Translations under genes and position numbers: made by a program
The notes under the pieces: generated by a model
Seen by the model: only the letters and a program-made list of their open reading frames with translations
Told to the model about the DNA's origin: nothing
Database searches by the model: none
Assembly: GCA_047639575.1 (NCBI GenBank)
Contig: JBLIOB010000001.1
Coordinates: 178 to 64,177 of the forward strand
Source: Parvicellaceae bacterium
GTDB lineage: Bacteria; Bacteroidota; Bacteroidia; Flavobacteriales_D; Parvicellaceae
Length of the DNA: 64,000 nt
Reading direction: 5' to 3'
Part shown: positions 8,275-48,722 of the stretch, piece by piece
How the letters are laid out: each line of letters opens with the position of its first letter
Numbering within the stretch: position 1 is the stretch's first letter

Positions 8275-8295
8275 TCAAATTATTTAAATAGACTT

Positions 8296-30865: not shown

Positions 30866-30942
30866 GGTCTGGTAGTTCAGTTGGTTAGAATACCTGCCTG
30901 TCACGCAGGGGGTCGCGGGTTCGAGTCCCGTCCAGACCGCCA
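30866..30942 (+). tRNA. tRNA-Asp (anticodon GTC), CCA encoded
   Basis: The cloverleaf can be drawn by hand. Acceptor GGTCTGG/CCAGACC, anticodon stem CCTGC/GCAGG with loop CTGTCAC, T-arm GCGGG-TTCGAGT-CCCGT, discriminator G, then CCA. Confidence 0.95.
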
Positions 30943-31022
30943 GTTCGCAAGAACAAAAAGTAAGTCTTTATGGCTGAAGACCTAGAGAAGCCCGAGGAGT
31001 ATCAAAATCCTCGGGCTTTTTG
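30925..31022. repeat. attL: 98-bp direct repeat (last 18 nt of tRNA-Asp plus trailer and terminator)
   Basis: Matches 48625..48722 at 95/98 positions, at an offset of exactly 17,700 bp. Mismatches are at 30968, 30977 and 31012. Confidence 0.9.
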
Positions 31023-31026: not shown

Positions 31027-31033
31027 CTATAAA

Positions 31034-31057
31034 GGGGTCAGTTTAGGGATCAGATTA
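31034..31057 (+). repeat. Tandem 12-mer GGGGTCAGTTTA-GGGATCAGATTA (candidate arm-type recombinase site, attL arm)
   Basis: Starts 12 nt inside attL. Near-identical to the tandem GGGATCAGATTA x2 at 48477..48500, in the same orientation. Confidence 0.5.
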
Positions 31058-31222: not shown

Positions 31223-33481
31223 ATGGCAAATTATGATTTTCAAAGTCTATTATCTCCATTAGATTTTGAACACCTGGTTAAGGATTTATTGTCAGCTGAG
31301 CTTCAGATTGAGTTCACAACATTTGCCAGCGGTAAAGATGGTGGTGTGGATTTGAGGTATTCAAAAAATGGTGAGTCAAATATTATTATTCAATGCAAAC
31401 GGGTTAAATATATTGGGAAAAAAGTTCTTCAAAAAGAGGCTGATAAGGTTAAGGAGTTGAATCCGGACTTTTACTATTTCGTTACTTCATCTGATCTTAG
31501 TGTTGCCAAAACCGATCAAATAAAGGAGTTGTTTAAAAACTGGATTGATAGTGATGAATACATATATACTAGGGAAAAACTAAATAGTCTTATAGATAAG
31601 CATAAAGACATTCATCAAAAACATTACAAATTATGGTTGAATAGCTCGACTATTTTCAATTCGCTAATTAATAACCATCTGTATGAAAGAGCAAAATCCC
31701 TGATTAATAGCATTTCTTCCTCTTATAAATACTATGTTAAAAATGACAGTATAAAAGACGCTATTAATATTTTGAATGAGAGTCAGTTTTTAATTATTAG
31801 TGGTATACCTGGTATTGGAAAAACAACATTAGCAAAACTTCTGCTCTGGGAGTACTTACAAAAAGGGTTTGAAGTAGTCGAAATCAGAAAAGTTATTGAA
31901 GGTGAACAAATTTTAATTGAAGAATCAGAAGCAAAACAAGTTTTTTATTTTGATGACTTTTTAGGCGAGAATTTTTTAAAATATGATGTTATTGAAGGAC
32001 GTTCATATGATCTTGTACAATTTATTCAACGAATAATGAGCAGTAAAAACAAGATTCTAATAATGACCACAAGGGAATACATATTAAATCAGGCGAAAGA
32101 AAAATACGACAAACTGGATTCAAATGAACTAAATATTTATAAGTACACTCTAGACCTAGACAACTACACGAAGAGAATAAAAACACTGATTCTATATAAC
32201 CATTTATTCTACTCGAAAATTAATGAAGCGTACATAAATAATATTATTTCTTCGAAGGCTTACAAAAAGATAATAAATCACAAAAATTATAGTCCCCGTA
32301 TTATCGAACAGATGACCACAAGGCTTCATAATGTAGCTCCAGATGATTATTCTGACGTGTTTTTGAATAATTTAGATAATCCATTTGGGATTTGGGACAA
32401 AGCTTTTAAAGCCGAAATATCTGAAGGCTCAAAATACACTTTGTATATACTATTGTCCATTGGTAAAGCTATTTCACTTTCAGATTTAAAAAAATCTTTA
32501 ACCTATTTTCACCAGATATCTGCAAAGAAAAATTCACTCGACTTTAGAACATTAGATTTTAAAAATTATTTAAAAGAACTTGAAGGAAGCTTTATAAAAA
32601 TTGATGTTACGGACGACTTAAATCACTATGTAGATTTTCAAAATCCTTCAATTAAAGACTTTTTACTAGAAATAATTAAGTCAAATGATGAAATCGCATT
32701 GATGCTTTTGCAATCTGCTTTTTTCTTCAACCAGTTTGTTTATGTAGTGAATTATTTGACTGAAAAAAATAATGATTTGGTAGAAACTAAAAACATAATA
32801 AGCTCAGTTGTAATAAATCGGTTTGAAGAATTCGAAAATTCAAGTAGTTTTTTTAGTGGCTATGAATTTGAAAATGAAAGGCGTGATATTAATATCATTG
32901 AAAGTTTGTCTGAGTACATGCAACGACATACTAATGATGAGCTTCTCGAATTTCTAATAAGTAAATTTGAAAAATTGGAGATTAGTCAGCTTTATACATC
33001 TGAAGAACCAGGGTACATTATGTTTTATTCAACCTTCAAGGAACGCATATCAATACCATTTAATCAAATATTGAAGCAATTATTCGACAACATTAGTTGG
33101 TTCAGAAGCGTAAAAAATTTCCTTCTCCTAAAACCGATTTCTGAAAAAGAATTTTCAGCATTTATAGAAGATCACAAGGAGTCTGTTGATGTAAAGGTTA
33201 TCGATGCAATTAGAAACGATATAGAATATGCACGCTCCGAGTCTTCCTTGAATACGCTTATTAGTAACATTGAATCTGAAATTGATAATTTGAATTTAAT
33301 TTCCAAATTCAATTATTCAAAATTAAAAATAGAGATAACCGATAAAATTAAAAGCGTTGTAACTGATGAAGATGAAAACAACGAGTTTTTAGACCAAGAA
33401 ATTAATATTGAAGAGGAATTTAACATGGAAGAATCAAATTTTAACGAAGATGAATATTTCAAAATTGAAATGTTTGATTGA
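31223..33481 (+). CDS. Mrr-like restriction endonuclease domain fused to STAND-type P-loop NTPase
   Basis: 752 aa. N-terminus LDFEHLVKDLL...GKDGGVDL...IIIQCKR (PD-(D/E)xK Mrr_cat pattern). Walker A ISGIPGIGKTTLAKLL and Walker B VFYFDDFLG. About 450 aa helical C-terminal region with an acidic tail. Confidence 0.7.
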   Translation: MANYDFQSLLSPLDFEHLVKDLLSAELQIEFTTFASGKDGGVDLRYSKNGESNIIIQCKRVKYIGKKVLQKEADKVKELNPDFYYFVTSSDLSVAKTDQIKELFKNWIDSDEYIYTREKLNSLIDKHKDIHQKHYKLWLNSSTIFNSLINNHLYERAKSLINSISSSYKYYVKNDSIKDAINILNESQFLIISGIPGIGKTTLAKLLLWEYLQKGFEVVEIRKVIEGEQILIEESEAKQVFYFDDFLGENFLKYDVIEGRSYDLVQFIQRIMSSKNKILIMTTREYILNQAKEKYDKLDSNELNIYKYTLDLDNYTKRIKTLILYNHLFYSKINEAYINNIISSKAYKKIINHKNYSPRIIEQMTTRLHNVAPDDYSDVFLNNLDNPFGIWDKAFKAEISEGSKYTLYILLSIGKAISLSDLKKSLTYFHQISAKKNSLDFRTLDFKNYLKELEGSFIKIDVTDDLNHYVDFQNPSIKDFLLEIIKSNDEIALMLLQSAFFFNQFVYVVNYLTEKNNDLVETKNIISSVVINRFEEFENSSSFFSGYEFENERRDINIIESLSEYMQRHTNDELLEFLISKFEKLEISQLYTSEEPGYIMFYSTFKERISIPFNQILKQLFDNISWFRSVKNFLLLKPISEKEFSAFIEDHKESVDVKVIDAIRNDIEYARSESSLNTLISNIESEIDNLNLISKFNYSKLKIEITDKIKSVVTDEDENNEFLDQEINIEEEFNMEESNFNEDEYFKIEMFD

Positions 33482-33566: not shown

Positions 33567-35339
33567 ATGGGGCATATAATAAGTAACATTCAAATAAAAA
33601 ACTTCAAATCTGTCAAAAACCAAGAATTTGATTTATCTGCTTTCTCACCTCTTATTGGATACAATAACGCTGGAAAATCAAACATTTTGGAAGCAATAAA
33701 ATGGGTTTTAAGAAAAACATCATTAAAAAAAGATAGTTTCAACGATATAACTCAACCAATAATAATGATTGGTAAAATCGAAGGAATCACAACCGACATA
33801 TTAGACAATATTGACCCAGTTCATAGAACCAGAATAGTACCATTTCTTAACAATGAAACATTAACCATAAAGAGAATTCAGACAAGTCCAAGTCAGTCTG
33901 CCGCTCAAATTCAATTGCAAGTTTTAGACCCTACCGATGGTACCACATGGCAAAACAATCCTACCGGAATAGATAATGCAATAAAAGATTTATTCCCAGA
34001 ACCTATTCACATAGGCGCAATGGAAAATTCCGAAGATGACATTTCAAAATCTAGCACTTCATCTACTATTGGCAAACTATTAGCAGAAATAATAGAACCA
34101 ATTGAGCTGCAATATGGCCAACAAGTAAATACAGCGCTGAATGGTCTTAAGGAAATTTTGGATGCCGAAGGAATTCAACGTGCACCAGAACTTACGACTT
34201 TTGACCAAGAAATAAATGAAAAATTGGAAGCCTTTTTCCCCGATATAAAAGTAAAAGTGCACATTCCAACACCAGAATTAAAAGAAGTTTTCAAAAAAGG
34301 AACAATTAAAGTATATGAAAACTTATTGCCAACACCTAAGGATGTCAGTCTGCTGGGTCATGGTGCACAACGGTCCATTCAAATGACACTTATTAGACAT
34401 TTAGCGGATTTAAAATTAATCAGTCAAGAAAATAGGACAACAACATTATTACTGATTGATGAACCTGAACTTTATTTGCATCCGCAAGCAATAGAAATAT
34501 TAAGAAATTCACTTAAGGTATTATCCAATCAAGGGTATCAGGTTATATTTTCAACGCATTCACCTTTTATGATTACTCAAAAAGATGTAGGAAATACGAT
34601 CCTAATTAGAAAAAATGACGCTCTAGGAACATATAAAAGAACAACTCTAAAAAGTGCCATTCCGATTGTGGAACAAGAAGCCTCACATCAACTTACCTTA
34701 TTATACTCTTTGAGTAATTCTAGTAACATTTTGTTTTCAGAAAAAGTAATACTTACAGAAGGTAAAACAGAAAACAAATTACTACCCATTATTATTGAAA
34801 AAGTTACTGGGAAAACAATTTTATATCATAAAGCAGCTTTAGTTAAGTTGGATGGTTCGGGAAACACTAAAAAAACAATGCGAGTCCTTACAACAATGGA
34901 CCTGCCAACCAAAGCAATCGTAGATTTAGATTTCGCTTTAAAAAACGGAATAAGAGAGGGTTATTTACAAGCAGACGATGCCGATATCATAAGCTGTCTT
35001 GCCGAAATAACAAACTTAGCCGCTGGAAATAATATTGCAATAGGCTCTGACGGTTGGCCAACAAGCAGTAATGGTTCAATCTCGGCCGCTGCGGGTTTTT
35101 CAATTTTAGCTCAATCCACAAATACAGAAGATAACATTATTAATATCTGTGCTAAGATGAAAGATCACAACATATGGGTCTGGAAGCACGGGACAATTGA
35201 GGATCAGCTCGATCTTGATGGAAAAAGTGAGGCTATTTGGGCAGCATTTAATGAGTCATTGGAGCAATCTGATTTAGAAACAATCTTGCCTGTAAAACAT
35301 CAAGATATTGAGGATTGTATTAACTGGCTATTAGATTAA
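33567..35339 (+). CDS. OLD-family nuclease (ABC-type ATPase + Toprim)
   Basis: 590 aa. IKNFKSVKNQEFDL...GYNNAGKSNILEAI (Walker A), LLLIDEPELYLHP (Walker B), FSTHSP. C-terminal Toprim VILTEGKTE, AIVDLDF, and terminal HGTIEDQL. Confidence 0.75.
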   Translation: MGHIISNIQIKNFKSVKNQEFDLSAFSPLIGYNNAGKSNILEAIKWVLRKTSLKKDSFNDITQPIIMIGKIEGITTDILDNIDPVHRTRIVPFLNNETLTIKRIQTSPSQSAAQIQLQVLDPTDGTTWQNNPTGIDNAIKDLFPEPIHIGAMENSEDDISKSSTSSTIGKLLAEIIEPIELQYGQQVNTALNGLKEILDAEGIQRAPELTTFDQEINEKLEAFFPDIKVKVHIPTPELKEVFKKGTIKVYENLLPTPKDVSLLGHGAQRSIQMTLIRHLADLKLISQENRTTTLLLIDEPELYLHPQAIEILRNSLKVLSNQGYQVIFSTHSPFMITQKDVGNTILIRKNDALGTYKRTTLKSAIPIVEQEASHQLTLLYSLSNSSNILFSEKVILTEGKTENKLLPIIIEKVTGKTILYHKAALVKLDGSGNTKKTMRVLTTMDLPTKAIVDLDFALKNGIREGYLQADDADIISCLAEITNLAAGNNIAIGSDGWPTSSNGSISAAAGFSILAQSTNTEDNIINICAKMKDHNIWVWKHGTIEDQLDLDGKSEAIWAAFNESLEQSDLETILPVKHQDIEDCINWLLD

Positions 35340-35374: not shown

Positions 35375-36079
35375 ATGGCTATATCAGATAAATCAAGAAA
35401 AAACCTATGGGCTAAATCCGGAAATCGTTGTGCAATTTGCAAAACAGAATTATTTGCAAAAGATGAAAGTGAAAATGAGTTTAACATCGGTGAAGAATGC
35501 CATATAATAAGTAAAAAAGATACTGGCCCAAGACATAAAGAAGGCCTAAGTGATTACGATCATCATAGTAATTTATTATTACTGTGTCGTAATCATCATA
35601 AAGAAGTTGACGAACTAATGGATACGTTTACCGAAGATCTCCTTAATTACATAAAAATTAATCATGAAAATTGGGTGAGAAAATCTCTTTCTAAATCAAT
35701 AGAAGGGGAATCACCGGAAGAACCAGCTTTTTTAACCTCGATTAAAACCGGAGCCCAACTACTAAATACATTACGATCAACTTTAGCTACTTCCATCGAC
35801 TTTGATGAAGTGCGTACTCAAGAAGAGTCGGTGATCGTTGGAGGAGCAAGTCAAACTTTAACAGAGTATTTAGATATTCTAGAAATTGTGGAACCCGGGG
35901 ATATTCCAGGATTATCATTACAAATGAAAGAATTTATAGAATCTTTGGAATCAAAAGGGTTCTTGCTTTTCGGACAACGTCAAGTGAGATCAATTCAAGT
36001 TGGAAGCAAATCTGAAAAAATAGATGTTGCTAATTTTGCAATTAAAAGAATTGATAGTCCTGATATCATTGCTTTATGA
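35375..36079 (+). CDS. HNH endonuclease with unassigned C-terminal domain
   Basis: 234 aa. CAICKTEL...ECHIISKK...LLLLCRNHHKEVD is an HNH/zinc-finger core. The remaining 130 aa have no motif I recognise. Lies 35 nt after the OLD gene. Confidence 0.75.
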   Translation: MAISDKSRKNLWAKSGNRCAICKTELFAKDESENEFNIGEECHIISKKDTGPRHKEGLSDYDHHSNLLLLCRNHHKEVDELMDTFTEDLLNYIKINHENWVRKSLSKSIEGESPEEPAFLTSIKTGAQLLNTLRSTLATSIDFDEVRTQEESVIVGGASQTLTEYLDILEIVEPGDIPGLSLQMKEFIESLESKGFLLFGQRQVRSIQVGSKSEKIDVANFAIKRIDSPDIIAL

Positions 36080-36206: not shown

Positions 36207-37412
36207 ATGGTCATAGATTCGGATAAAATCCTATTTTTTATAATTCAATTTAAAAGCTTAATCATGAATCTTGACGACATATTAGGTAAAGTTGACAAAT
36301 CCTTTGATTGGGACAAAACAAAAAAACTCAACTTTGCAAAGGTCTTCGTAACATTCGTTAAAGTTCGAGCCGCCTACTTGGACCCAAAAAAACGTGCCCG
36401 AATCGACCTTGAATTTAATCGAAGCATAATTATAGAACTATTTCAATTCAAGCCAAATATTAAATTTTTAATCGGTGACTGCGAGGATCAAGCGGTTCTG
36501 TTAGATGTACGAAAACGAGAATCAATGCACTCTCGAAACGAGTTGTTTTTCAATACCGCCTCTGCCCCATTCCAAGAAGACTTTTCAGAGGCCGTGCTAT
36601 TTGTTTTTAAAAACTATGTAGACAAAATCAATAATACTTTTGATTTTAAACTGCTAACATCGTCAATTGATCAGCTAGCAACTGAGCTAAGAGACGAACT
36701 AATATCCACCCATTACGTCCTGGATTATTTTATCAAACTGAAGCTGGAAATTCTCGATGAAGAATTCCCTCGTTTTTTCGATCCATATTTAAAAACGAAT
36801 AAATGGTCGATTGATGACAAGGTCAAATTAGTGCAAAAATTAATTAGCGAATATCGAATAGCACTTCTGGAAGATCGGTTTATTAATCCGGTAGAAAACT
36901 TTATGGTGTTAGGATACCGATATAAGGTATCTAAAGCCACTTCAGACAAATATGTACTGGCAATTGTATCGTTGCTAAATGATAGACTAGTTGCTTGGGA
37001 CGAACCTAGAATTGAGCTTACATTGAATGACAAAGTAGATCCTAGAATCGAAACTAACTCTGATGAAAACGAGATTTACAGCTACTTTCAAAAACTTAGA
37101 AACAAAAACAAAAAAGGACAGGAGATCATGTCTGAAAAAGAGATTCGCTTATTTATCGGATCAGCATTCGTTAATTGTGAATATCAGAAACTTGAGAACA
37201 AATTAAAGCCTAAAACTACGCAGCAGGCATTAAGAAAATTGGTACACGGATTTTACTACGAGGATAGGAATACCCAAGCTAATAAGCAGAAAGAATATTG
37301 CTTATTACTTATCAATAGTTTTGAGCAGTTTAAATCTTACGATCGAGCTGATGGTGTAGATGATTTATCAAAAAAATTAGGCAATTCTGTGGAAGGACAT
37401 TATCCTTTTTGA
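36207..37412 (+). CDS. Hypothetical protein (no recognisable domain)
   Basis: 401-aa ORF (alternative start ATG 36264, MNLDDILG). Codon-consistent long ORF followed by a hairpin at 37435-37461. Confidence 0.5.
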   Translation: MVIDSDKILFFIIQFKSLIMNLDDILGKVDKSFDWDKTKKLNFAKVFVTFVKVRAAYLDPKKRARIDLEFNRSIIIELFQFKPNIKFLIGDCEDQAVLLDVRKRESMHSRNELFFNTASAPFQEDFSEAVLFVFKNYVDKINNTFDFKLLTSSIDQLATELRDELISTHYVLDYFIKLKLEILDEEFPRFFDPYLKTNKWSIDDKVKLVQKLISEYRIALLEDRFINPVENFMVLGYRYKVSKATSDKYVLAIVSLLNDRLVAWDEPRIELTLNDKVDPRIETNSDENEIYSYFQKLRNKNKKGQEIMSEKEIRLFIGSAFVNCEYQKLENKLKPKTTQQALRKLVHGFYYEDRNTQANKQKEYCLLLINSFEQFKSYDRADGVDDLSKKLGNSVEGHYPF

Positions 37413-37505: not shown

Positions 37506-37814
37506 ATGAAAAAAGAAAACAATAAAGAACAAGACGAAAGGCTCCTCTTCAACTTAACCGTAACAGAATTACGTGCTTTAGTAAAAGAGCTATTATTAGA
37601 AACTTCGAACGAAAAACCTTCTGAACCAAACGGACCTGACGAATTAATTCCTCGCAAGGATTTAGCGCGAGAATTCAAAGTATCCTTAGTAACTATAGAC
37701 AGATGGACTAAACTTAATCTTCTTCCTAAAGCAATTAAACAAGGCGGTCGTATTTACTTTTCCAGAGCTGACATAAATAAGATGATTTCAGAGAAAGGAG
37801 AACGAAATGCTTAA
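37506..37814 (+). CDS. Helix-turn-helix excisionase/AlpA-like DNA-binding protein
   Basis: 102 aa. LIPRKDLAREFKVSLVTIDRWTKLNLLPKAIKQGGRIYFSRADINKMI matches the HTH_17/MerR-type excisionase pattern common in Bacteroidota integrative elements. Confidence 0.7.
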   Translation: MKKENNKEQDERLLFNLTVTELRALVKELLLETSNEKPSEPNGPDELIPRKDLAREFKVSLVTIDRWTKLNLLPKAIKQGGRIYFSRADINKMISEKGERNA

Positions 37815-38127
37815 GCTAGACCCTAAAATTACCCTGCAAGGAATTATTGATGGATTAACAACCAAACTGAATTCCTACTTAAGCGCAGAGCGCCCTTCAT
37901 ACAAAACAACAAAGGCTATGAAGAACTTAATCAATGACCTCTATCTCGTTTTTGACAATATGGACTTGCTACTTCTCTTCAGTATTTGGACAATTGTAGA
38001 GAAAAGAATCTTTGAAATCGAAGATTTAGATCCTGAAGTTTCCGTTTTCGTTATTGAACTGAGACGATCAAATAAAAATGACAATAAGGCAATTATTAAT
38101 CTAAATAATCAATCAGATGAAAAATGA
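37807..38127 (+). CDS. Hypothetical protein
   Basis: 106 aa. Overlaps the upstream gene by 8 nt and the downstream gene by 11 nt, so probably translationally coupled. Confidence 0.45.
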   Translation: MLKLDPKITLQGIIDGLTTKLNSYLSAERPSYKTTKAMKNLINDLYLVFDNMDLLLLFSIWTIVEKRIFEIEDLDPEVSVFVIELRRSNKNDNKAIINLNNQSDEK

Positions 38128-39361
38128 ATTCCCAAAAGGAGTCTTTCCAGCTGAAGTTGAGGAGATGATTGACGAATGCGTTAAGGTTAATGGATTTAAC
38201 AGAGACATTCTATGCTGTGCCTTTCTCACAACCGTATCGAGCATTGTAGGCAATAAATTAAAAGTTAAGATTCAGGACTCGTGGCACGAGAGTATCTGCA
38301 TTTGGGTAGCTATAGTTGGGTTCTCAGGTTTAAAGAAGTCACCTGCTATTAAAACCATGATGAAACCAATATTAGACAAAGAAGCAAAATGGTATTTGGA
38401 ATACATGGAAGTGCAAAAAGAACAATCTGATGATTCGGATAAGCCAAAATGTAAACAAATCTACGTGGATGATGCGACTTTCGAAGCACTGGTTACTGTA
38501 CTATCTAACAATCCAAATGGAGTGGTGTTGAAGAAAGATGAACTAATGACATTAATTAAAGACTCAGGGCGGTATAGTGGTGCAAGTCAACTTGAGAAAC
38601 TTATGTCAATTTTTAGCGGTGAGGATATTAGAATCAATCGTAAAGGCGATGATTACAATGAACTCATCGTTAGCCCTTTTGTAAATATTATTGGAGGCAT
38701 ACAAAACAAAGTAGTGGATGAACTTTTCAAGGCGGGCAGACAAGACAATGGATTTGTTTATCGGTTTTTATTCTGCAAACCAGAATCACCCGAACGAAAT
38801 ATGCCCGAAGGGGAATGCAACGAAGTTATAAGATCTAAATATTACAATCTTGTTAATCGAGTTTTCGAACTTCCTGAATCGCAGACTTCAAAAAATCAAA
38901 GCCGAAATATTCACCTTTCTCCCGATGCTTCAATAGAATTTAAAAGTTGGCAAACAAACTTCATTTATAAAGATGCAGAACATGATGAAGACTTAATTAG
39001 CTATAAATCAAAGATGGAAGCGAATGCCTGCAGGATTGCGCTTATTCTGGAAACCGCCACATCAGCAGCTAAAAAATCTGCACCGGTCGAAATCTCAAAA
39101 AATTCAATGGAGAATGCCATTAGAATTAGCATGTATTTTATCCGTTGCTATTTGAGCATAACTAAACCAGGTCCATCTGAAAACGTAATTATTAAAGTAA
39201 GAATCAGCGCGCTTAGACAACGGGCAATTGTTTTGTTTAAAGGAGGGCTCAACCTTAAAGAAATTATAGTTAAAACTTATAATGAAGGTTATAGAAATTC
39301 CGAAATAAATCAGGCTTTAGGTGTGCCCAAGGCCACTATTAGCTTATATACCAAGACTTAA
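38117..39361 (+). CDS. DUF3987-family protein (primase/helicase-associated, YfjI-like)
   Basis: 414 aa. VDDATFEALVTVLSNNPNGVVLKKDELMTLI and FVNIIGGIQ patterns are typical of DUF3987 proteins of integrative elements. C-terminal HTH-like tail. Confidence 0.6.
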   Translation: MKNEFPKGVFPAEVEEMIDECVKVNGFNRDILCCAFLTTVSSIVGNKLKVKIQDSWHESICIWVAIVGFSGLKKSPAIKTMMKPILDKEAKWYLEYMEVQKEQSDDSDKPKCKQIYVDDATFEALVTVLSNNPNGVVLKKDELMTLIKDSGRYSGASQLEKLMSIFSGEDIRINRKGDDYNELIVSPFVNIIGGIQNKVVDELFKAGRQDNGFVYRFLFCKPESPERNMPEGECNEVIRSKYYNLVNRVFELPESQTSKNQSRNIHLSPDASIEFKSWQTNFIYKDAEHDEDLISYKSKMEANACRIALILETATSAAKKSAPVEISKNSMENAIRISMYFIRCYLSITKPGPSENVIIKVRISALRQRAIVLFKGGLNLKEIIVKTYNEGYRNSEINQALGVPKATISLYTKT

Positions 39362-39916: not shown

Positions 39917-40113
39917 TGGATTACTTATCAATTGGAGATCCTTCTATTCCAAGTTTTAGCTTACCAGTAAAGGCTCAAGTTCCTGCGTCAAATAATAATG
40001 CTATTTGGTGGGTAATTGGAGGGGCGGTTGTAATTGGAGTTATTGGTTATTTAGCTTACCATTATGCCTATAAAATCAAAACTAGAACCAATACAACTGA
40101 AAGCGATATTTAG
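39916..40113 (+). CDS. Small membrane protein
   Basis: 65 aa with one clear TM helix (AIWWVIGGAVVIGVIGYLAYHYA). Confidence 0.4.
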   Translation: MDYLSIGDPSIPSFSLPVKAQVPASNNNAIWWVIGGAVVIGVIGYLAYHYAYKIKTRTNTTESDI

Positions 40114-41540
40114 GGTTCCAGCATCAATTTTACAGTCCTAGCTTTATGCCCACCAATAACAAAAGAACATAGATATATTCCTGGCGAGAACCCATTTAAA
40201 TCGAGTTCGATTTGACCTTCACGAAATAGAACTAGCCTTTCTAAGATTACTTTACCCATTAGGTCTGATATAATCACCTTTTCAATCTCTATCTCAGATT
40301 CAAATTGAATTGTAGTCGAACTGGAAAATGGATTGGGAAAAGCACTTATAGAAATATTAGCAATTTCTTCCTTTATTCCAATCCCATTACACCCCAAATC
40401 AATACATCCATAATAATCCGTTCTAAATAACCACAAATCTTGAGAAAATCCAGCATCGGCAAACACTACTCCCAAAAAGAGTAAGCTGCTATCCCCCAGC
40501 TCTTCTACATCATAGATATAATGATCATTTAAGCGCTTATCAGGCCTTCGTTGCCATATTTCGTTACAGTTACTATCAACTTTAACTATCCAACCCTGAG
40601 GGTCACTTAATGAAGGCGGATGCACCGTACCTGCAGCAATGAAAGAACCATCATCCAGTTCATGCCCCGCATACAAGTTCGCTCGGTATATATCTGTTTG
40701 ATCAAAAATAATTTGATTCTGGATAATTCCGTTCGTATTTAACTTCGTTATCTGGCCAGTGTATTCGCTAGCGGTGGACCACAGACCGTAGCACCAATAT
40801 CCAGTCTTTCCTGCCTCTACAAAAGCAATTTCACCTCCAAAACTAGTTCCGTAATCCCTTTCCCATTCAAACGCTCCAGATTCATCGACCTTTACTAAGT
40901 GCCAATTACCATTTGGCTCTATACTGTAGTTATATCCGGACATTAGATATCCTGAATCAACTCCAGGAACTATGCTAAATGCAATATCCGCACCCGCACC
41001 ACCGTACGTGCTACTGTCAAGTATATTACCAAGCGTATCTGTTTTTAGAAACAAAAAATCATTTCCGTTAGAAGGCGAATATTGATATCCACAAAACACA
41101 TAATTTGAATCATTAGCTACACAACCACCTAACAGAATCATCTGAAGAGAATTCACTGTGTAGTATCTGGACCAAACAAGTTCACCTGATTTTTTAATCT
41201 TGAAAGTAAATGCGCGTATAGTGTCTATAGCATTTACATTTCCATAACCAATGATATTATCTTCATGATCAACGTAAAATCCAAGATAGCCAACATCTAA
41301 ACTTATAGAATCGATAATGGTGAAATCAACAATTTTATTTCCGTTCGTATCAAACTTTGATAATATTAGATCCCGCTTAACAAAATCATCGGTCCATCCT
41401 ATCGTATAGAGCGTATCATCAATCATTTCCATCCCAATTCCAGCTTCAACCGCACCCCAATCATAGGTGTTATTAAAGAATTGTTGAGCATTGCTGCTAA
41501 ATCCAATTGAGATAAACGATATGATGAGTAGAACTCTCAC
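40110..41540 (-). CDS. Secreted repeat protein with T9SS C-terminal sorting domain
   Basis: 476 aa. Signal peptide, repeated propeller-like segments, and a C-terminal Por_Secre_tail pattern (FPNPFSSSTTIQFE...GIYLCSFVIGG). 4-nt overlap with the upstream giant gene. Confidence 0.65.
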   Translation of the reverse strand: MRVLLIISFISIGFSSNAQQFFNNTYDWGAVEAGIGMEMIDDTLYTIGWTDDFVKRDLILSKFDTNGNKIVDFTIIDSISLDVGYLGFYVDHEDNIIGYGNVNAIDTIRAFTFKIKKSGELVWSRYYTVNSLQMILLGGCVANDSNYVFCGYQYSPSNGNDFLFLKTDTLGNILDSSTYGGAGADIAFSIVPGVDSGYLMSGYNYSIEPNGNWHLVKVDESGAFEWERDYGTSFGGEIAFVEAGKTGYWCYGLWSTASEYTGQITKLNTNGIIQNQIIFDQTDIYRANLYAGHELDDGSFIAAGTVHPPSLSDPQGWIVKVDSNCNEIWQRRPDKRLNDHYIYDVEELGDSSLLFLGVVFADAGFSQDLWLFRTDYYGCIDLGCNGIGIKEEIANISISAFPNPFSSSTTIQFESEIEIEKVIISDLMGKVILERLVLFREGQIELDLNGFSPGIYLCSFVIGGHKARTVKLMLEP

Positions 41541-44500
41541 TTTCTAATAATAATTTTATCAAATTTAATTATAATGCCTCCTTCAATAACTTGAATAACA
41601 TACATCCCTTCTGGTTGGTCTTGAAGATCAACTGTTTTAGTTGTTCCGACAAAATTCAAATCCTGTACAAGTCTCCCATCCATCGTATATATACGCACTT
41701 TACCAGCTTCGAGTTCAACTTCCGATAATATATTAAGCATTCCCGATGTAGGGTTTGGATTAATATCCACTTCTTTTTCGATGATTTCATTTCCTGGATT
41801 CTCTTTATCTGACTTTATACTGCTCAGCGACTTACCTGCACCTAGAATATCTTCACCTCCAATGTATGGGAAACTATTTTTCACAAAATTCAAAATGGCT
41901 TCGGCATTTGCACGCACACCAACATCCCCTTTGTTAGCAATCACATCTAGTTCATTCATCTCAGATGAAGTAAGACTATAATAGCCGCCTGGTCGCTGTT
42001 TTACATGGGTCAGCAGTTCATGAAAATCACAAAAACTAATAACATTATCCCCTTTCTTATCTCCTGGAAGTTCATACTTTTTCATGTCTTCTCCTGCCAG
42101 GCGGATACTAGTCAAATGCTGACTTGCTTTAACCGGATCTCTTTTAATTTCAATTGGCACAAGAGCGCATGATGCTTCACTAGAACCGTCAAGCTCAAGA
42201 TAATAAACAGCAGTATCAATCCAAGTACTATCGATCCATGCACTGTCCAAAAATCGTCTGGTTAATCGCGCTAACTCAATGTTTTTGTTCAAATTAACCA
42301 TTGCAATTTCCTTTTCGATTTGGTCCAACGGTCTTATACCAGTTTGAACATTCTGAATTTGATTTAAGATTCCATTTGGTATGTTATCTGATTCCAGCCA
42401 AAAAAGAACTTTTTCACTAAGTGGACTATTTGCAAGAAGCACTTGTTTTAAATTTCCATTTGGCGGGTTAGACCATAAATATTCAATCAATACTTTATCA
42501 CTTAAAAAAGGCGATAGTGAAAGCAATTCATTTTTAACCTGGCCATCTGGTCCATTTGCAATTACGTCTAGCAAGGCATCAGCATCACCAGCATCAATTT
42601 GTTCCTCAAACAATATTTTTTGTTCCAGCAATGCAAAATATTTTCCTTTCCCAGTCCCTATAGGAGTGTTAACTAAACTGGTTACGCACTGTTCCACAGG
42701 TTCTGGCACACCTATGCAAATTTCTGCAGTACTTAGGTCAAAAGCGCAAGACGTTGGAACGTATCCTTCTCCTATGTACGAATCATATTCAAATAAATTA
42801 GTACCAGGGTTTCTATAATGCTGGTACTTGCTATTTAAAATGTCGCATGTTCCAGTCCAGTTATTTGCCATTTTAGAAAATTGCAATGGGCTTCCACAAT
42901 CTCCCTGATTTGCCATTAATCCAGTACTATGATGGTGCCCCACAATTGAATTACTTCCTATATCAAACCCATTACAATCATATTCTAATGCTAAATTATT
43001 TTGACTTGTTTGCAGGCCTATTGATATATCTGCAAAATCATTTAGGAAAATTTCACTTGCCAAGATATCACCGTTCTTTTTAAAAATTCCAGTACTTAAA
43101 TATGATTCTGTAGAAGAATAAGAGGTGAAATCATTATCTTCTATTTTAGAACCACTTACACCGTCACTGTAGATGCCAAAGTCCCAATATCGAGTTCCAG
43201 AAGTACCAACAGCGCCATCAGCGTTTGAAATTTGAAATTTATTTCGAGTTACATCCGATTTCGTATTTGTTCCAGCCATCCGAATTCCATATACACAATT
43301 TGAAAAATTGTTTTGATCTATTGTCGCTTTTCTATGTGTCGACCCTTCCAATGAAATTACTCCAGCATATAAGTTGTTAAATGAATTGGACCTTGTGAAA
43401 TCTGAACAGAATGGATCAAAAAATCCACAAACTGGACCTACTCTCATGCTAGCATCAAGCATAACTAAGCCGCTTCCTCTTTTATCAAAATCAAATTCTT
43501 CCCAGGCTAAATTGTCAAATACGTTGTTTTCAAAATCTACACCTTGAATATCATACATTGTGACATGGGCGTACGGTCCATCTTCTTTATCAGGATAATT
43601 TAAATCTGTTAAAAAGAGTGAATTTGTCACTTTAGACAAATTATTTCCTCCAACATCATAGCTCATGAATTCAATGGATCTCCAATTATTTCTAAACGTT
43701 GAATTATTCGCTGATATTACTCCTCCTGTTGTGTTCCAATCCAAATTTCCATTTGAATCCTCGCCAATTAATTGAACTGCATTTCTAGCATACTCAATTA
43801 CCGCGTTTTCAAGTAATACAATTCCACGATTTGCAGGATTCAATTGGCTGCTTGATACATCTCCCTCAATAATTATCCCATCCCAAAACACTCCGCATTG
43901 ATTCGTTATGGTTCCTCCGTTAACTGTAAACTTGCCGCCTTTTTTAACCGTAATCGATTTTCCAGCCGACATAAAAATCTTACCTTCTAAAATCACCTCA
44001 GAATTTGTAGGAACAATTAGATTATTTAAATACTTTTCTTCACCAGTAATAGTTCTTAGAGACTGACCATGACTTAAATCTTCACCCAAATTATTTACAG
44101 GAAGTTTAGATTTCCAGATACCTCGTCCATAAGTTGAAATAAATATCTCTTTGGTACAATTGTTAATCTCCAAGTCGGAAACCATTGCCACAGGCAAATT
44201 ATTATTAAAACATTCCCAGGGAGTACTTTCATCCGTAGCATCGGATTTATAATAAACACCTACATCTGTTGCGGCATAAATAGAGTTTCCGCCCCCATCA
44301 ACAAATACAAGCTTCTGTACCGGTAAGCCCGGCAAACCCAAGGATACGTCAGTCCATGATGCTCCATTGTCATCAGTGAATAAAACGCTTCTTTTTCCTG
44401 AAGGAGTGGCTGAAGTATAATTAGTTGAAATCCAAATTTTAGAGGGATCCTCGGGATGAAAAGTTACATGGGTAATTGTAGCCCACTTTAACGCATCGAA

Positions 44501-47035
44501 TAATTCAGGCGAATTAGAGCCTCTTGTCAAATCAGTCCAGTTAGATCCATTATCTAATGTTAAAAAAAGCTTACTATGGATATCAGAAGGACTTGTAACT
44601 CCTTCCGCATTCAAGTGATTTCCAGCAGCTACAATAACTATATTATCATTTTTATCATAAATATTCACGCTGCGATATTTGGTTTTGAAATCGGCAACAA
44701 ATGGATCACTTGGATTAACAATATTAAATGATCCAAAATTGTCATTCGTATTTCTTAAATATTTAAGTCCTCCATACCAAACACGGTCAGGATTCAACTT
44801 TGATCGGTCAAAATTTGACTCTAAACTTCCATCACTTAACCCTCCGGATCCTGGACCTCCACAAGAACTAATACCAGTAAGCGTTGTTAGGTTCCAACCA
44901 CCGCAGCAACCATGCTGAATTACACTTGTGGTACCCGTAAGTTCGTTAATATGAACATCTCCTCCATCGGAGCCACATCCTCGCGTCCAAGATTCACCGT
45001 CACCGCCAAGAGTTCCATTATCTTGAGTCCCTCCAATGATAACTTTTGAACTTTTATCAGTAACATCCATTCCATAGAACTGCGTATTATTTAGCCCTTT
45101 CCCATTAATATTCAAAGTTGTGGCATAACCATCTGGTGTAAATGTTATTCCACCGTCATTCCCTATCAAAACCACATCGTTTCCATTTCCCGTTGGATCC
45201 GAAGCAACAATTTGAATAGCTCTTGTATCACCATGTATCCCATGAAATCCCGCTGGACCAACTTCAGTTGAGATTCCAGAACTAAGATTGCCTTTTAACA
45301 AAACCACATTATCCATGTACCACCATTCAGGGAAATCCTTATTAATTGCAAAATCACCATGAAACAAACTTACCCCTGAACAATCATCATAAAAACTCCA
45401 AGTAATCCCATAATCTGATGATTTATATATTATTTGTTCATCGGTTGCTGCATAAATATTACCCATATTATCATGTTCAACTTCAATATTTCTATGCACT
45501 AAAAGCTCGTTTAAAATCACATCTATGTTATCCATTATCACTTTGTCCGCTCCAGCATAGGTTGCATTACTCGTAGCTTCAAACCATAAATCGGTCATTC
45601 CAAAATCACCCAAACTTGGATCAACCAAAAACGGCAAAGTTTCATTCGAGTATACCATATCTGTGGTTGCGATTGCGCCAGAATTACTTTCCCAAATTGG
45701 TAAAAACTGATCTCCTAATCCAGATACAAAATGTCTCGCAAAAACGGTCAATTTAGTATCCTTCGGCACCCTTGCATCAAATACCAAATCAAAGTTCCTT
45801 CCAAATTGCCAACCAAAAATATCCGAGGCTTTCAATCTTGCTTTTGGTTGACGTGGCTGAATTGGATCATTTATGTCCGGTAATGCAGCAGCCACAATAT
45901 TTGTTGGATCAAGAGGGTCAATTTCATATTTCCAAGTTCTAAAGCCATAATTAGGAGCACTTGATGAAGAGACAAAGGGATGGGTCAATTGATTTCCGAT
46001 TGTTCCGCCTTCCATGTCTCCAGCTATTTCCAAAACAGAGCCATTACCCATAATTACTATTTGATCTGTAAAATTGTGCCAAGTTGCACCTCGATCTGTA
46101 GAAACGAGCGCGTTTGATGAACTATTCCCGTCAGCTTTACTACCAACTACTACAATTGTGTTTCCTCCATCATCCATAACCTCAATGTCATGAAACCAGT
46201 GGTTATTTGCACCATGAATTTGCGAAGCGGGAGGTGTTACTTCGGTGTAAATATTTGAGCAGGTGTTGTACCAAAACAACCTTCTTCCAAAAGAAACAAG
46301 TGCCTCACACGGTACATTTGGGTCAAAATCTACGTTATGTGAGACTGCTCCTGCAACTTGATCAACAGGTATCGCAGAAGGAACATCAACAATATTCCAA
46401 TTTTTACCTTTGTTTGTTGAAATGAGTAATCCCATTCCGTAATTAAATTGGCCTAATCCCAGCGCAGCCAATACAACATTATCATCTCCGGGCTTAACTG
46501 CAAAATCATTAATCCCAATTCCCGGATGTCTCAGATTATCTGTAACACAATTCCAGTTGACTCCACCATCTTCAGTTCTCCAAATACCAGAAGTTGCGGC
46601 ACCTGCTAAAATCGTATTCCTGTCATTCTCGTACATATGGACAGCAATTATTCTCCCTTGACTTTGTACATCAAAGAAAAATGGACCTACGAATCCCCAA
46701 TCACTCTCTCCCCCATCGCAAACTGCGGATCCTGAGAAAGCCTTAACCGCATCAACAAATGTACCCGGCTTTCCCGTTTCCATTGCCGAGGTTCCTCTAA
46801 GACGGTCATCAAATAACCATTTAGTTCTTTCATATTCTTTCAGCTGAGACTGTGTCCAGTTTAACTTAATATTTGAAGCATCTATGGCATTCGTTACATT
46901 ATAAAAGTTATAAGAAGCATCTATTCCTTCCAAATGCGACTTTGGCGTTTGAGCGGTCGCATGACTGTATAGACACAACATTAATATCCCTATTAAGGAG
47001 CCTATTTCACAGATTTTTTTTAGCTGGAATTTCAT
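41537..47035 (-). CDS. Giant secreted BNR/Asp-box repeat + right-handed beta-helix protein with T9SS C-terminal sorting domain
   Basis: 1832 aa. Signal peptide. At least six Asp-box motifs (TEDGGVNW, STNKGKNW, STDRGATW, SSDYGITW, TLDNGSNW, TDDNGASW). The central region has parallel beta-helix-like repeats. C-terminal NPNPTSGMLNI...GMYVIQV sorting domain. Confidence 0.7.
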   Translation of the reverse strand: MKFQLKKICEIGSLIGILMLCLYSHATAQTPKSHLEGIDASYNFYNVTNAIDASNIKLNWTQSQLKEYERTKWLFDDRLRGTSAMETGKPGTFVDAVKAFSGSAVCDGGESDWGFVGPFFFDVQSQGRIIAVHMYENDRNTILAGAATSGIWRTEDGGVNWNCVTDNLRHPGIGINDFAVKPGDDNVVLAALGLGQFNYGMGLLISTNKGKNWNIVDVPSAIPVDQVAGAVSHNVDFDPNVPCEALVSFGRRLFWYNTCSNIYTEVTPPASQIHGANNHWFHDIEVMDDGGNTIVVVGSKADGNSSSNALVSTDRGATWHNFTDQIVIMGNGSVLEIAGDMEGGTIGNQLTHPFVSSSSAPNYGFRTWKYEIDPLDPTNIVAAALPDINDPIQPRQPKARLKASDIFGWQFGRNFDLVFDARVPKDTKLTVFARHFVSGLGDQFLPIWESNSGAIATTDMVYSNETLPFLVDPSLGDFGMTDLWFEATSNATYAGADKVIMDNIDVILNELLVHRNIEVEHDNMGNIYAATDEQIIYKSSDYGITWSFYDDCSGVSLFHGDFAINKDFPEWWYMDNVVLLKGNLSSGISTEVGPAGFHGIHGDTRAIQIVASDPTGNGNDVVLIGNDGGITFTPDGYATTLNINGKGLNNTQFYGMDVTDKSSKVIIGGTQDNGTLGGDGESWTRGCGSDGGDVHINELTGTTSVIQHGCCGGWNLTTLTGISSCGGPGSGGLSDGSLESNFDRSKLNPDRVWYGGLKYLRNTNDNFGSFNIVNPSDPFVADFKTKYRSVNIYDKNDNIVIVAAGNHLNAEGVTSPSDIHSKLFLTLDNGSNWTDLTRGSNSPELFDALKWATITHVTFHPEDPSKIWISTNYTSATPSGKRSVLFTDDNGASWTDVSLGLPGLPVQKLVFVDGGGNSIYAATDVGVYYKSDATDESTPWECFNNNLPVAMVSDLEINNCTKEIFISTYGRGIWKSKLPVNNLGEDLSHGQSLRTITGEEKYLNNLIVPTNSEVILEGKIFMSAGKSITVKKGGKFTVNGGTITNQCGVFWDGIIIEGDVSSSQLNPANRGIVLLENAVIEYARNAVQLIGEDSNGNLDWNTTGGVISANNSTFRNNWRSIEFMSYDVGGNNLSKVTNSLFLTDLNYPDKEDGPYAHVTMYDIQGVDFENNVFDNLAWEEFDFDKRGSGLVMLDASMRVGPVCGFFDPFCSDFTRSNSFNNLYAGVISLEGSTHRKATIDQNNFSNCVYGIRMAGTNTKSDVTRNKFQISNADGAVGTSGTRYWDFGIYSDGVSGSKIEDNDFTSYSSTESYLSTGIFKKNGDILASEIFLNDFADISIGLQTSQNNLALEYDCNGFDIGSNSIVGHHHSTGLMANQGDCGSPLQFSKMANNWTGTCDILNSKYQHYRNPGTNLFEYDSYIGEGYVPTSCAFDLSTAEICIGVPEPVEQCVTSLVNTPIGTGKGKYFALLEQKILFEEQIDAGDADALLDVIANGPDGQVKNELLSLSPFLSDKVLIEYLWSNPPNGNLKQVLLANSPLSEKVLFWLESDNIPNGILNQIQNVQTGIRPLDQIEKEIAMVNLNKNIELARLTRRFLDSAWIDSTWIDTAVYYLELDGSSEASCALVPIEIKRDPVKASQHLTSIRLAGEDMKKYELPGDKKGDNVISFCDFHELLTHVKQRPGGYYSLTSSEMNELDVIANKGDVGVRANAEAILNFVKNSFPYIGGEDILGAGKSLSSIKSDKENPGNEIIEKEVDINPNPTSGMLNILSEVELEAGKVRIYTMDGRLVQDLNFVGTTKTVDLQDQPEGMYVIQVIEGGIIIKFDKIIIRK

Positions 47036-47202: not shown

Positions 47203-48447
47203 CTAAAAGTAATCAGCATATTCAGTCGCGGTCAACTCAGCATCTAACTTCAAATACTTCATAAAACTCTTTTCCGTTTTATGCCCACTAAACATCATTA
47301 TAGCCTGAGCAGGCATGCCAACAATAAACTTTAATGTACAAAACGTCCTTCTACAAGAATGCGTTGATATTTCTTGATATTTGGGCCTAAACTCTTCGAT
47401 CGTTTTACCAGAACTTCTCTTATAGATTGTAATCGAATCATCTATTTCCGCACGTTTACATAAATCACGAATTGTATGATTAAACAAGGTTAGTTTTCTA
47501 CTATCGAAAGTTGGCAATTCAGCTTTATATTTTTCAAGTATTAGTCTTACGCGAGTACTTATCGGAATTTCTTGCTTAGAGCCCGTCTTTTTACTTCTTA
47601 TTATTAATCTATCTCTCTCAAAATATTGGGGTTTAAGCCTTGAGAAATCACTAAATCTTAATCCTGTTTCACAGCCGATCATGAATAAATCCCTAACTAT
47701 AATCTCATTTTCGTTTTTTAACTCCAAAGATTCAAGACGTAATAATTCGTCAGACTTGAGATAGACCTTATCCACTTCCTCCATTAATGTTGGCAAATGT
47801 TTCAAACTGTACCTTGGGTGTATTTCCCGATCAAAGCACCAATTTAAAAAGACCTTCAAGTTCTTATGCTGTTTCCCCACCGTATTAACCGACAAACCAT
47901 GATCACCTTTTGAATTGACAGCTTCATAAATTAAATATTGGTCCCAAGCATCCACGAAACCTTCATGTTGCAACTTGATAGAACGAAAAGTTAAAGACTG
48001 CCCAAACTTCACTTCTCCAGCTTGAAGATGCTTTCTTAATGAATTGTGGTAATCACGCACATCACCGAGTTCTGTTCTTTTAAAAGACACGAAATCTTCG
48101 AAATGATCCCAGAACTCCTTCTTTACTTTTGGCTGGATAGGATTGGCTTTAAGATTTAAAAACTCTTGCCTCAATATTTCAGCCTTTGGTATCCACCCTT
48201 CTGATTTATACCCATTATACAAGTCTATCATAAGACGAGACAACTTCTCTAATTGCAGATTAATTTGACCGTTATCTGGCAATTCCAACAACTCTTTTGC
48301 ACGTTGCTTTCGATCATTCCAATATTTAGGCTCAATCTTATAACCCGTAGACAGTTTTATACGTTGTCCATTAAAATTGAAGATGAGATTAATCAGCGAT
48401 TTGTTCTTCGCATTTTTGTTTTTAAGATTAAAATTCACTTCTGCCAT
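47203..48447 (-). CDS. int: Tyrosine recombinase/integrase (Bacteroidota type with N-terminal arm-binding domain)
   Basis: 414 aa. Catalytic pattern GLRFSD (Arg), HSCRRTF (His-x-x-Arg), and GHKTEKSFMKYL (His ... Tyr). Lies 177 nt from attR. Confidence 0.9.
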   Translation of the reverse strand: MAEVNFNLKNKNAKNKSLINLIFNFNGQRIKLSTGYKIEPKYWNDRKQRAKELLELPDNGQINLQLEKLSRLMIDLYNGYKSEGWIPKAEILRQEFLNLKANPIQPKVKKEFWDHFEDFVSFKRTELGDVRDYHNSLRKHLQAGEVKFGQSLTFRSIKLQHEGFVDAWDQYLIYEAVNSKGDHGLSVNTVGKQHKNLKVFLNWCFDREIHPRYSLKHLPTLMEEVDKVYLKSDELLRLESLELKNENEIIVRDLFMIGCETGLRFSDFSRLKPQYFERDRLIIRSKKTGSKQEIPISTRVRLILEKYKAELPTFDSRKLTLFNHTIRDLCKRAEIDDSITIYKRSSGKTIEEFRPKYQEISTHSCRRTFCTLKFIVGMPAQAIMMFSGHKTEKSFMKYLKLDAELTATEYADYF

Positions 48448-48476
48448 ATTGATCGTTTGTTCAAATATACGAAAAG

Positions 48477-48500
48477 GGGATCAGATTAGGGATCAGATTA
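48477..48500 (+). repeat. Tandem 12-mer GGGATCAGATTA x2 (candidate arm-type recombinase site, attR arm)
   Basis: Perfect tandem copy 30 nt upstream of the integrase start codon and 125 nt inside attR. Matches 31034..31057. Confidence 0.5.
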
Positions 48501-48624: not shown

Positions 48625-48722
48625 GTCCCGTCCAGACCGCCAGTTCGCAAGAACAAAAAGTAAGTCTATATGGCTGTAGACCTAGAGAAGCCCGAGGAGT
48701 ATCAAAATCCTTGGGCTTTTTG
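48625..48722. repeat. attR: 98-bp direct repeat containing a displaced tRNA-Asp 3' fragment
   Basis: GTCCCGTCCAGACCGCCA plus trailer and terminator, 95/98 identical to 30925..31022. No 5' tRNA half is present here. Confidence 0.9.

Follow-up and report, generated by a model that had tools for sequence, protein, structure and literature searches.

A compact Mrr nuclease-nSTAND3 NTPase at the edge of a tRNA-Asp island belongs to the candidate defence family PDC-S73 and is probably an Avs-like sensor-effector

What does a 752-aa protein that joins a nuclease, a nucleotide-dependent switch and a variable C-terminal domain on one chain do at the edge of an integrated island? The question is raised by a 64,000-nt stretch of a Parvicellaceae bacterium genome (Bacteroidota; NCBI GenBank assembly GCA_047639575.1, contig JBLIOB010000001.1, positions 178 to 64,177 of the forward strand), hereafter the window, whose own numbering is used throughout. 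An earlier reading of the letters (the original prediction) had singled out one gene as a fusion of an Mrr-type nuclease to a P-loop NTPase of the STAND (signal transduction ATPases with numerous domains) kind, and as a candidate single-gene immune sensor. By its profile match, this gene is a further member of the already catalogued PADLOC family PDC-S73 and no new kind of system. By analogy with characterised relatives, it probably encodes an autonomous, single-polypeptide anti-phage sensor-effector resembling Avs and NLR (nucleotide-binding leucine-rich repeat) proteins, carried as cargo at the tRNA-proximal end of the island. The gene and the parts of its product are as follows.

31223..33481, + strand: Mrr-nSTAND3 gene (752 aa), full-length PDC-S73 member (open reading frame; PADLOC PDLC05079)
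31250..31501, + strand: Mrr-type PD-(D/E)xK nuclease, residues 10-93 (Pfam Mrr_cat)
31502..31732, + strand: helical linker, residues 94-170, with invariant K136-L137-W138 (AlphaFold2 helices, invariant columns)
31733..32206, + strand: nSTAND3 P-loop NTPase core, residues 171-328 (Pfam PF20720, conservation)
32207..32677, + strand: STAND helical and winged-helix domains, residues 329-485 (conservation, AlphaFold2 secondary structure)
32678..33370, + strand: putative variable C-terminal sensor, residues 486-716, a compact helical fold with one beta-hairpin (entropy, AlphaFold2)
33371..33442, + strand: acidic disordered linker, residues 717-740 (model confidence, charge statistics)
33443..33478, + strand: conserved C-terminal motif, residues 741-752, NEDEYFKIEMFD (tails of 108 homologs, 70 loci)

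The open reading frame (ORF) begins with ATG and contains no internal stops. Its product matches the PDC-S73 model (PDLC05079) with an E value of 1.6e-138 and 461.7 bits, residues 1-734 aligning to positions 1-727 of a 752-position profile, and a whole-genome scan with the same model recovers the locus at 4.4e-138. The PADLOC check that had been proposed for this gene, once run, returned this end-to-end match and no Avs model. The PDC set comprises 145 candidates, picked out by "guilt-by-embedding" within BREX, DISARM or Type I restriction-modification (R-M) loci (Payne et al., bioRxiv 10.1101/2024.01.29.577857). The proposal of an immune sensor is upheld by the nuclease-STAND-sensor architecture, but the protein was already recognised as PDC-S73. 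A word-indexed search recovered 881 homologs, nearly all of 745-775 aa with Mrr_cat and nSTAND3, the named ones labelled either "restriction endonuclease" or "nSTAND3 domain-containing NTPase". The window protein shares this domain content and shows no architectural difference from PDC-S73, which is itself a bioinformatic candidate only. NCBIfam holds no family for the Mrr-nSTAND3 protein, and a literature search for "nSTAND3" returned only papers on Avs5 and on fungal NLRs.

The protein is organised in the tripartite order effector, NTPase and sensor, with Mrr_cat at residues 10-93, nSTAND3 at 171-328 and a variable helical domain at 486-716. The Mrr_cat hit (Pfam PF04471) has an E value of 7.5e-10 and 39.4 bits against a cut-off of 21, while nSTAND3 (Pfam PF20720) is matched over profile positions 1-153 of 155 with an E value of 1.8e-46 and 158.1 bits against a cut-off of 27.2. 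The motifs quoted in the original prediction are all present: GKDGGVDL (37-44), IIQCKR (55-60), GIPGIGKTT (194-202) and FYFDDFLG (241-248). Within the nuclease, E16, D39, G41, D43, Q57 and K59 are invariant both in an alignment of 69 homolog representatives from several phyla and in a 38-sequence alignment, and E16, D43 and Q57-x-K59 are proposed as the catalytic residues. The NTPase core carries a Walker A motif (G194-x-P-G-x-G-K200-T), a Walker B motif (D244-D245) and a sensor-1 element (T282-T283-R284). Among the 69 sequences, invariance extends to G194, P196, G197, G199 and K200 of Walker A, to D244-D245-F-L-G around Walker B, to T283-R284-E of sensor-1, to K136, L137 and W138 of the linker, and to F472, P475-S476 and D479 of the winged-helix motif. 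Among 108 sequences, the six nuclease residues, the five of Walker A, D244 and D245, T283 and R284, and P475, S476 and D479 are at least 95% conserved. This conservation of the catalytic and NTPase residues holds across phyla.

The features expected of a STAND protein were found together: the PF20720 hit above cut-off, the Walker A and B motifs with a sensor-1 arginine, and helical and winged-helix domains following the NTPase core. In the AlphaFold2 (AF2) model, helices at 317-453 are followed by strands at 458-462 and 468-472 and a helix at 475-487, and the winged-helix region closes with the motif F472-x-N-P-S-x-x-D479-F480 (FQNPSIKDF, 472-480, in the window protein). The all-helical region of about 450 aa that had been described after the NTPase is not one unit: residues 329-485 belong to the STAND helical and winged-helix domains, and the putative sensor that follows measures about 230 aa and includes a beta-hairpin at 541-550 in the AF2 model. 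Column entropy changes along the same lines: it stays low as far as about residue 485 and is high, at 2.4-2.9 bits, between 500 and 750. At the other end of the chain, the PADLOC model Aga_TIR-PNTD1-PNTD2 spans the nuclease and linker (residues 3-158, E 4e-27); a literature search on the meaning of this model name gave nothing relevant, and the match is left uninterpreted.

The full-length AF2 model, built from the 69-sequence alignment, has a mean predicted local distance difference test score (pLDDT) of 83.7, with values below 50 only at residues 36-42 and in the linker at 717-732. A Foldseek search of this model against the PDB placed human SAMD9 first (PDB 9zjs, E 2.4e-8), ahead of the Sir2-STAND protein EfAvs5 (833 aa, E 1.3e-6), an AVAST5 filament (768 aa, E 2.6e-6) and Avs4 with a phage portal (E 3e-6). 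Further matches were plant NLR resistosomes (NRC2, Sr35, RPP1 and the wheat octameric G10-resistosome, 9h2l) and ORC/Cdc6-type switches. The fusion of an Mrr nuclease to a P-loop STAND module is borne out by the two Pfam domains, the conserved residues and these STAND immune proteins; fold support for NTPase and nuclease alike, on which the original prediction had made itself depend, comes from the Pfam profiles and from Foldseek.

Which characterised systems, then, does the protein resemble? The same Pfam nSTAND3 module is used by Avs5 (bioRxiv 10.1101/2025.07.08.663546), the Sir2-STAND protein of AVAST type 5 (PDB 9jap, 9nc9), which also shares the tripartite order and a comparable length (768-833 aa vs 752), the two Foldseek alignments extending over about 730 columns. 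Avs5 differs in carrying a Sir2 NADase effector where the window protein has an Mrr nuclease. No PADLOC Avs model matches the window protein, and its family profile does not reach the Avs5 chains. Its sensor does not appear to be like tetratricopeptide (TPR), Sel1 or pentatricopeptide (PPR) repeats, Avs5 is absent from the sensor-only Foldseek list, and an acidic linker and conserved tail motif are further differences. Like Avs4 (PDB 8dgf) and Avs8, the protein begins with an Mrr-type nuclease, which has a D...QxK-type site and is fused to a STAND NTPase. Avs8, which combines Mrr with a P-loop module, is a ligand- and ATP-dependent DNase that requires its nuclease residues, and ligand-triggered oligomerisation that activates the DNase has been demonstrated for the Avs4/Avs8 kind (PMC12236752). 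Avs4 (~1,540 aa) and Avs8A (~140 kDa) are about twice as long and carry large tandem-repeat sensors, whereas the sensor here is non-repetitive and spans about 230 aa. Avs8 further includes a second gene, Avs8B, and the window protein matches no PD-Lambda-4 model. The likeness to SAMD9 and plant NLR resistosomes, which share the NTPase and the helical plus winged-helix core, holds at the level of the switch fold only (10-15% identity, template modelling (TM) scores of 0.2-0.3), their effectors and sensors being unrelated.

The most fitting description is an Avs-like protein in which an NTPase of the Avs5 type is combined with a nuclease of the Avs4 type and a small non-repeat sensor, one that would work like an Avs without being a member of Avs1-5 or Avs8; the wording goes no further because the available Avs family models were not matched. 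The statement that it is much shorter than known Avs proteins holds against Avs1-4 and Avs8 but not against Avs5, whose PDB entries measure 768-833 aa. STAND and NLR-type sensors are the clearest shared logic of bacterial and eukaryotic innate immunity. To our knowledge, every nuclease-bearing Avs protein characterised so far (Avs1-4 and Avs8) is very large and has a long repeat sensor. In PDC-S73, effector, switch and a small, non-repeat putative sensor fit within about 750 aa, and the family occurs in many phyla and travels on islands, plasmids and phages. Should it be validated, it would offer a minimal and tractable model for the coupling of ligand to nuclease in STAND proteins, for recognition by a non-TPR sensor and for regulation by a C-terminal tail.

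The C-terminal module is nearly constant in length (246-294 aa across 70 loci) and highly divergent in sequence, with a mean column identity of 20% and F751 (F268 of the aligned fragment) as its sole invariant column. Modelled by itself it folds with confidence in AF2 (pLDDT 91.7, predicted TM score 0.82). A Foldseek search of the module against the PDB gave no analogue: the best E value was 0.03, TM scores were below 0.4, and the matches were generic solenoid and TPR proteins. The remark that the helical part lacks TPR periodicity is in line with this result. No fold family can be assigned to the sensor, given no PDB match better than E 0.03. Matches by tblastn in distant genomes, plasmids and phages end at about residue 500. 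As judged from the alignments, this fast-evolving putative sensor beside a conserved core (residues 1 to ~500) is an arms-race pattern.

By analogy with Avs4, Avs8 and Avs5, the resting protein would be a closed, inactive monomer. A phage-derived ligand, most likely a protein, would bind the variable C-terminal domain and so open the NTPase. ATP binding would drive oligomerisation, either into a tetramer, as in Avs3 and Avs4, or into a helical filament, as in Avs5. The oligomer would bring the N-terminal Mrr domains side by side, and the nuclease activated in this way would cut dsDNA indiscriminately, leading to abortive infection.

The same nuclease and NTPase could instead belong to an NTP-dependent, Type IV-like restriction endonuclease, in which the C-terminal domain reads a DNA feature (base modifications, ends or structures), the NTPase clears the Mrr domain to act on that DNA, and self is told from non-self by the DNA itself. 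Mrr_cat is a Type IV restriction catalytic domain, homologs bear the public name "restriction endonuclease", and there is a weak match to the PADLOC model mREase_IV (E 0.017). PDC families were found within BREX, DISARM or Type I R-M loci, N6-methyltransferases are recurrent neighbours, and the sensor is without TPR-like protein-binding repeats. Yet the NTPase is a STAND switch with a winged helix, which sets it apart from translocase or GTPase motors such as McrB or helicases, and searches of Pfam and NCBIfam found no DNA-binding, McrB-type or helicase domain. The strongly acidic C-terminal region does not resemble a DNA-binding module, the closest structural matches are Avs and NLR proteins, which sense proteins, and a conserved enzymatic core with a hypervariable sensor next to it is typical of an arms race with protein ligands. 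On balance, restriction of this kind appears unlikely, and a protein-triggered sensor-effector remains the preferred reading.

The setting of the gene bears on whether it serves defence or the element that carries it. The boundaries of the island are the following.

30866..30942, + strand: tRNA-Asp (GTC), the island's integration target (ARAGORN)
30925..31022, no strand: attL, a 98-nt direct repeat that includes the tRNA 3' end (repeat search, 97% identity to attR)
48625..48722, no strand: attR, the second copy of the 98-nt repeat (repeat search)
47203..48447, - strand: island tyrosine integrase, 414 aa (Pfam Phage_integrase and Arm-DNA-bind_5)

The two 98-nt repeats (30925-31022 and 48625-48722) are spaced 17700 nt apart and bracket a 17.7-kb island integrated at the tRNA-Asp. 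The Mrr-nSTAND3 gene is the first ORF inside attL, as the original prediction had placed it. GC content is 0.29-0.31 across 31-34 kb vs about 0.35 in the remainder of the window. A 27-nt direct repeat rich in GGGATCAG(A/T)TTA units occurs just inside attL (31031-31057) and again between the start of the minus-strand integrase gene and attR (48474-48500), and from position and composition its copies could be arm-type binding sites for the integrase.

Beyond the window, the distribution of the family is accessory and mobile. Within the window's phylum, the PDC-S73 model is matched in 12 of 401 species-level genomes and in 8 of 179 genera; none of 14 control genomes has a match. In a species-representative genome collection, 254 stretches encode a relative, from Bacteroidota, Bacillota, Pseudomonadota, Campylobacterota, Spirochaetota, Planctomycetota, Verrucomicrobiota, Atribacterota and Patescibacteria-type (candidate phyla radiation, CPR) lineages. 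Recurrent neighbours include tyrosine integrases (10 loci), serine recombinases (6), N6-methyltransferases (5), coupling proteins of type IV secretion systems (3) and VapE-like primases (2). Relatives occur on 50 plasmids, 25 of them conjugative, and in 3 phage records. These relatives of the nuclease-NTPase core are 29-43% identical over residues 1 to ~495; the plasmid carriers include NZ_CP094625.1 and NZ_CP091949.1, and the phage carriers are KU517658.1 (Clostridium phage HM T, 10220-11689) and two uncultured phage contigs. At one homolog locus, from Larkinella arboricola (L023), the homolog (5929-8295) is the first gene beside a tRNA-Asn (5806-5880), with a tyrosine integrase about 3 kb downstream; the placement as first gene inside an att site is repeated there in an unrelated island.

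Such a setting could also suit a module for island stabilisation or for competition between elements, in which a toxin-like nuclease kills cells that lose the island or strikes rival plasmids and integrative conjugative elements (ICEs). The position at the island edge, the homologs on conjugative plasmids and in ICE-like contexts, and the Larkinella locus with its tRNA and nearby integrase are in keeping with this idea. Against it, no small antitoxin-like partner is conserved alongside the gene, the architecture and the structural relatives are those of pathogen sensors, and the same mobile contexts are typical of bona fide defence genes. Of the alternatives weighed here we regard it as the least probable, and favour anti-phage defence as the role of this cargo.

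A profile of the sensor was searched exhaustively over 1.84 billion representatives and matched 902 clusters at E <= 1e-3, 437 at E <= 1e-10 and 61 at E <= 1e-30. No other long architecture built on the same sensor appeared in this search: in every full-length match the protein measures 740-805 aa and the module occupies residues 485-770 or so. A short length class of about 336-351 aa (a C-terminal ORF of ~345 aa) recurs among the matches. Among the members sampled, on metagenome contigs, L169/L170 have two frameshifts in a full-length gene; L172 is interrupted at codon 384 by one in-frame TAA and L174/L175 at codon 372 by one in-frame TGA, homology continuing in frame past the stop in each of the latter cases. 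Gene callers for this reason report the C-terminal ORF repeatedly. At L171 the short ORF shows no upstream homology on the available 177 nt of contig, and the L173 contig is too short. A separate winged-helix plus sensor architecture of ~345 aa is rejected, as four of the five assessable loci hold an interrupted full-length gene. Most of the short forms appear to be inactivated copies, as would fit a gene that is costly to keep.

Several observations weigh against an Avs-like sensor-effector that acts alone. The PDC set, including PDC-S73, is explicitly untested (bioRxiv 10.1101/2024.01.29.577857), and a literature search found no full-text match to "PDC-S73". Seven PADLOC families are matched at E <= 0.1, none of them Avs, AVAST or PD-Lambda-4. 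Whole-chain Foldseek TM-scores are low (0.2-0.36), and the similarity is therefore at the level of domains and not of a global pose. The full-length family profile, run against PDB sequences, reached only generic P-loops (E >= 0.0056); a nuclease-only profile matched nothing meaningful there, and between them these two profiles reached no solved structure by sequence beyond the P-loop. The sensor is not a repeat array as in characterised Avs proteins and is without a structural analogue in Foldseek. Finally, where an OLD gene adjoins a homolog, it is full-length and always the immediate neighbour, co-directional in 15 of 16 cases and often separated by gaps of only 1-15 nt or overlapping; in the window the gap is 85 nt, with no terminator-like site found. 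This operon-like adjacency leaves room for functional coupling. The neighbour in the window is the following.

33567..35339, + strand: OLD-family ABC-ATPase/TOPRIM nuclease, 590 aa, immediate downstream neighbour (PADLOC Old, E 4e-228; Pfam AAA_15 and OLD-like_TOPRIM)

OLD is the commonest neighbour of the homologs, present at 16 of 80 loci and at 14 of the 55 with adequate flanks (~20-25%), in many phyla. The numbered loci concerned are L004, L006, L007, L009, L015, L018, L033, L034, L039, L048, L055, L056, L062, L063, L075 and L080; L172 is an additional case. The two genes could on this basis form a coupled two-gene system, either a sensor with an amplifier or co-regulated layers that work only together. 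The frequency and immediacy of the pairing, its shared direction and tight gaps, the L172 case and the short window gap all favour coupling, as does a reverse search, in which PDC-S73-like neighbours were found in 3 of 80 OLD-centred metagenome loci. However, 64 of the 80 homolog loci are without OLD, so that about 75-80% of family members do without it. On the family tree its presence is scattered, with at least 12 forced changes, a figure as low being reached by 176 of 500 label shuffles; the distribution is no more clustered than with shuffled labels. Identity between these OLD partners and the OLD of the window is no more than 15-24%, L055 (57%) being the exception, and identities of OLD and STAND proteins are uncorrelated (Mantel r 0.03, p 0.33). 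At L048 and L055, STAND proteins 82% identical stand beside OLDs 20% identical, and near-identical STAND proteins with such divergent partners argue against a specific complex. Gene order also varies, OLD lying upstream in most loci and downstream in the window, and OLD relatives adjoin many other defence genes; their other neighbours in the reverse search, where no more than those 3 of 80 loci had a PDC-S73-like neighbour, include methyltransferases, Type I S subunits and SbcC/D-like proteins.

An obligate, co-evolving OLD partner of the Gabija, PARIS or retron-Eco8 type is rejected on the phylogenetic scatter and the lack of co-divergence. Among PADLOC models, "Old" gives the best match to the OLD neighbours, the best E values for GajA and AriA being much weaker. 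A literature search, judged by titles and abstracts, found no description of a STAND-Mrr and OLD pairing. A functionally coupled two-gene system is very improbable. Given the scatter on the tree and the lack of co-divergence, OLD is most likely not a subunit but a preferred yet interchangeable companion, an independent defence gene at the same location, and the Mrr-STAND gene is most likely autonomous. The earlier description as a single-gene system is probably right, with the caveat that OLD is the immediate neighbour in about a fifth to a quarter (~20-25%) of homolog loci.

The C-terminal end had been described as an acidic low-complexity tail. Its acidity is confirmed, the last 60 aa having a median net charge of -11.5 across 74 homologs vs -0.9 per 60 aa in the body, but the tail is not merely of low complexity and ends in a conserved motif. 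In close relatives this reads F-[DN]-E-[DE]-E-[YL]-F-K-I-E-[ML]-F, and in distant ones I-x-x-[ML]-F-[DE]-[ST]-L; the pattern [ILVMFY]xx[MLIF]Fxx[LMFI] falls within the final 25 residues of 58 of 74 members. Residues 741-752 reach a pLDDT of 85-88 in the full-length model vs about 61-75 in the module modelled alone, a comparison in which the two alignments differ; the drop may hint that the tail touches the N-terminal part of the protein. Speculatively, the acidic linker and the invariant-Phe tail may form an intramolecular latch that holds the resting state closed. In a fuller version, which we consider doubtful, the latch would take the place of a large repeat sensor: the linker would mimic DNA in the Mrr groove, the Phe motif would dock on the N-terminal core until ligand releases it, phages could trigger or evade the system through the tail, and the interchangeable OLD, kept at the same place by selection, would add another nuclease layer with a trigger of its own. 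What is new here, on a modest scale, is the conserved tail motif and the modular way in which OLD is linked to the gene.

Directly beyond OLD, the island continues with two genes on the same strand.

35375-36079, + strand: HNH protein, 234 aa, directly 3' of OLD (Pfam HNH_2)
36207-37412, + strand: 401-aa protein without a family match, after the HNH gene

The N-terminal ~100 residues of the HNH protein match PADLOC models for SAVED_HNH/CBASS-type HNH effectors and PDC-M68A (E 8e-27 to 2e-23), and the two genes may, judging from their position and these matches, form a further defence cassette. A scan for sigma-70-type promoters was uninformative, with 22 sites found vs 22.5 expected. The remainder of the island (37506-39361, + strand; 40110-47035, - strand) encodes an HTH_17 excisionase-like gene, a DUF3987 protein (414 aa), which we take to belong to a primase/helicase-like family, and two large Por_Secre_tail proteins (476 and 1832 aa) sorted by the type IX secretion system (T9SS). 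Secreted-protein cargo and defence cargo are found next to each other on the same island. Elsewhere in the source genome, weak nSTAND3 matches lie on the + strand of two further contigs, at G000:C248:1709-2155 (open frame of 707 aa, E 3.4e-6) and at G000:C73:11024-11293 (open frame of 431 aa, E 1.4e-5), and these two ORFs may encode additional STAND-type proteins.

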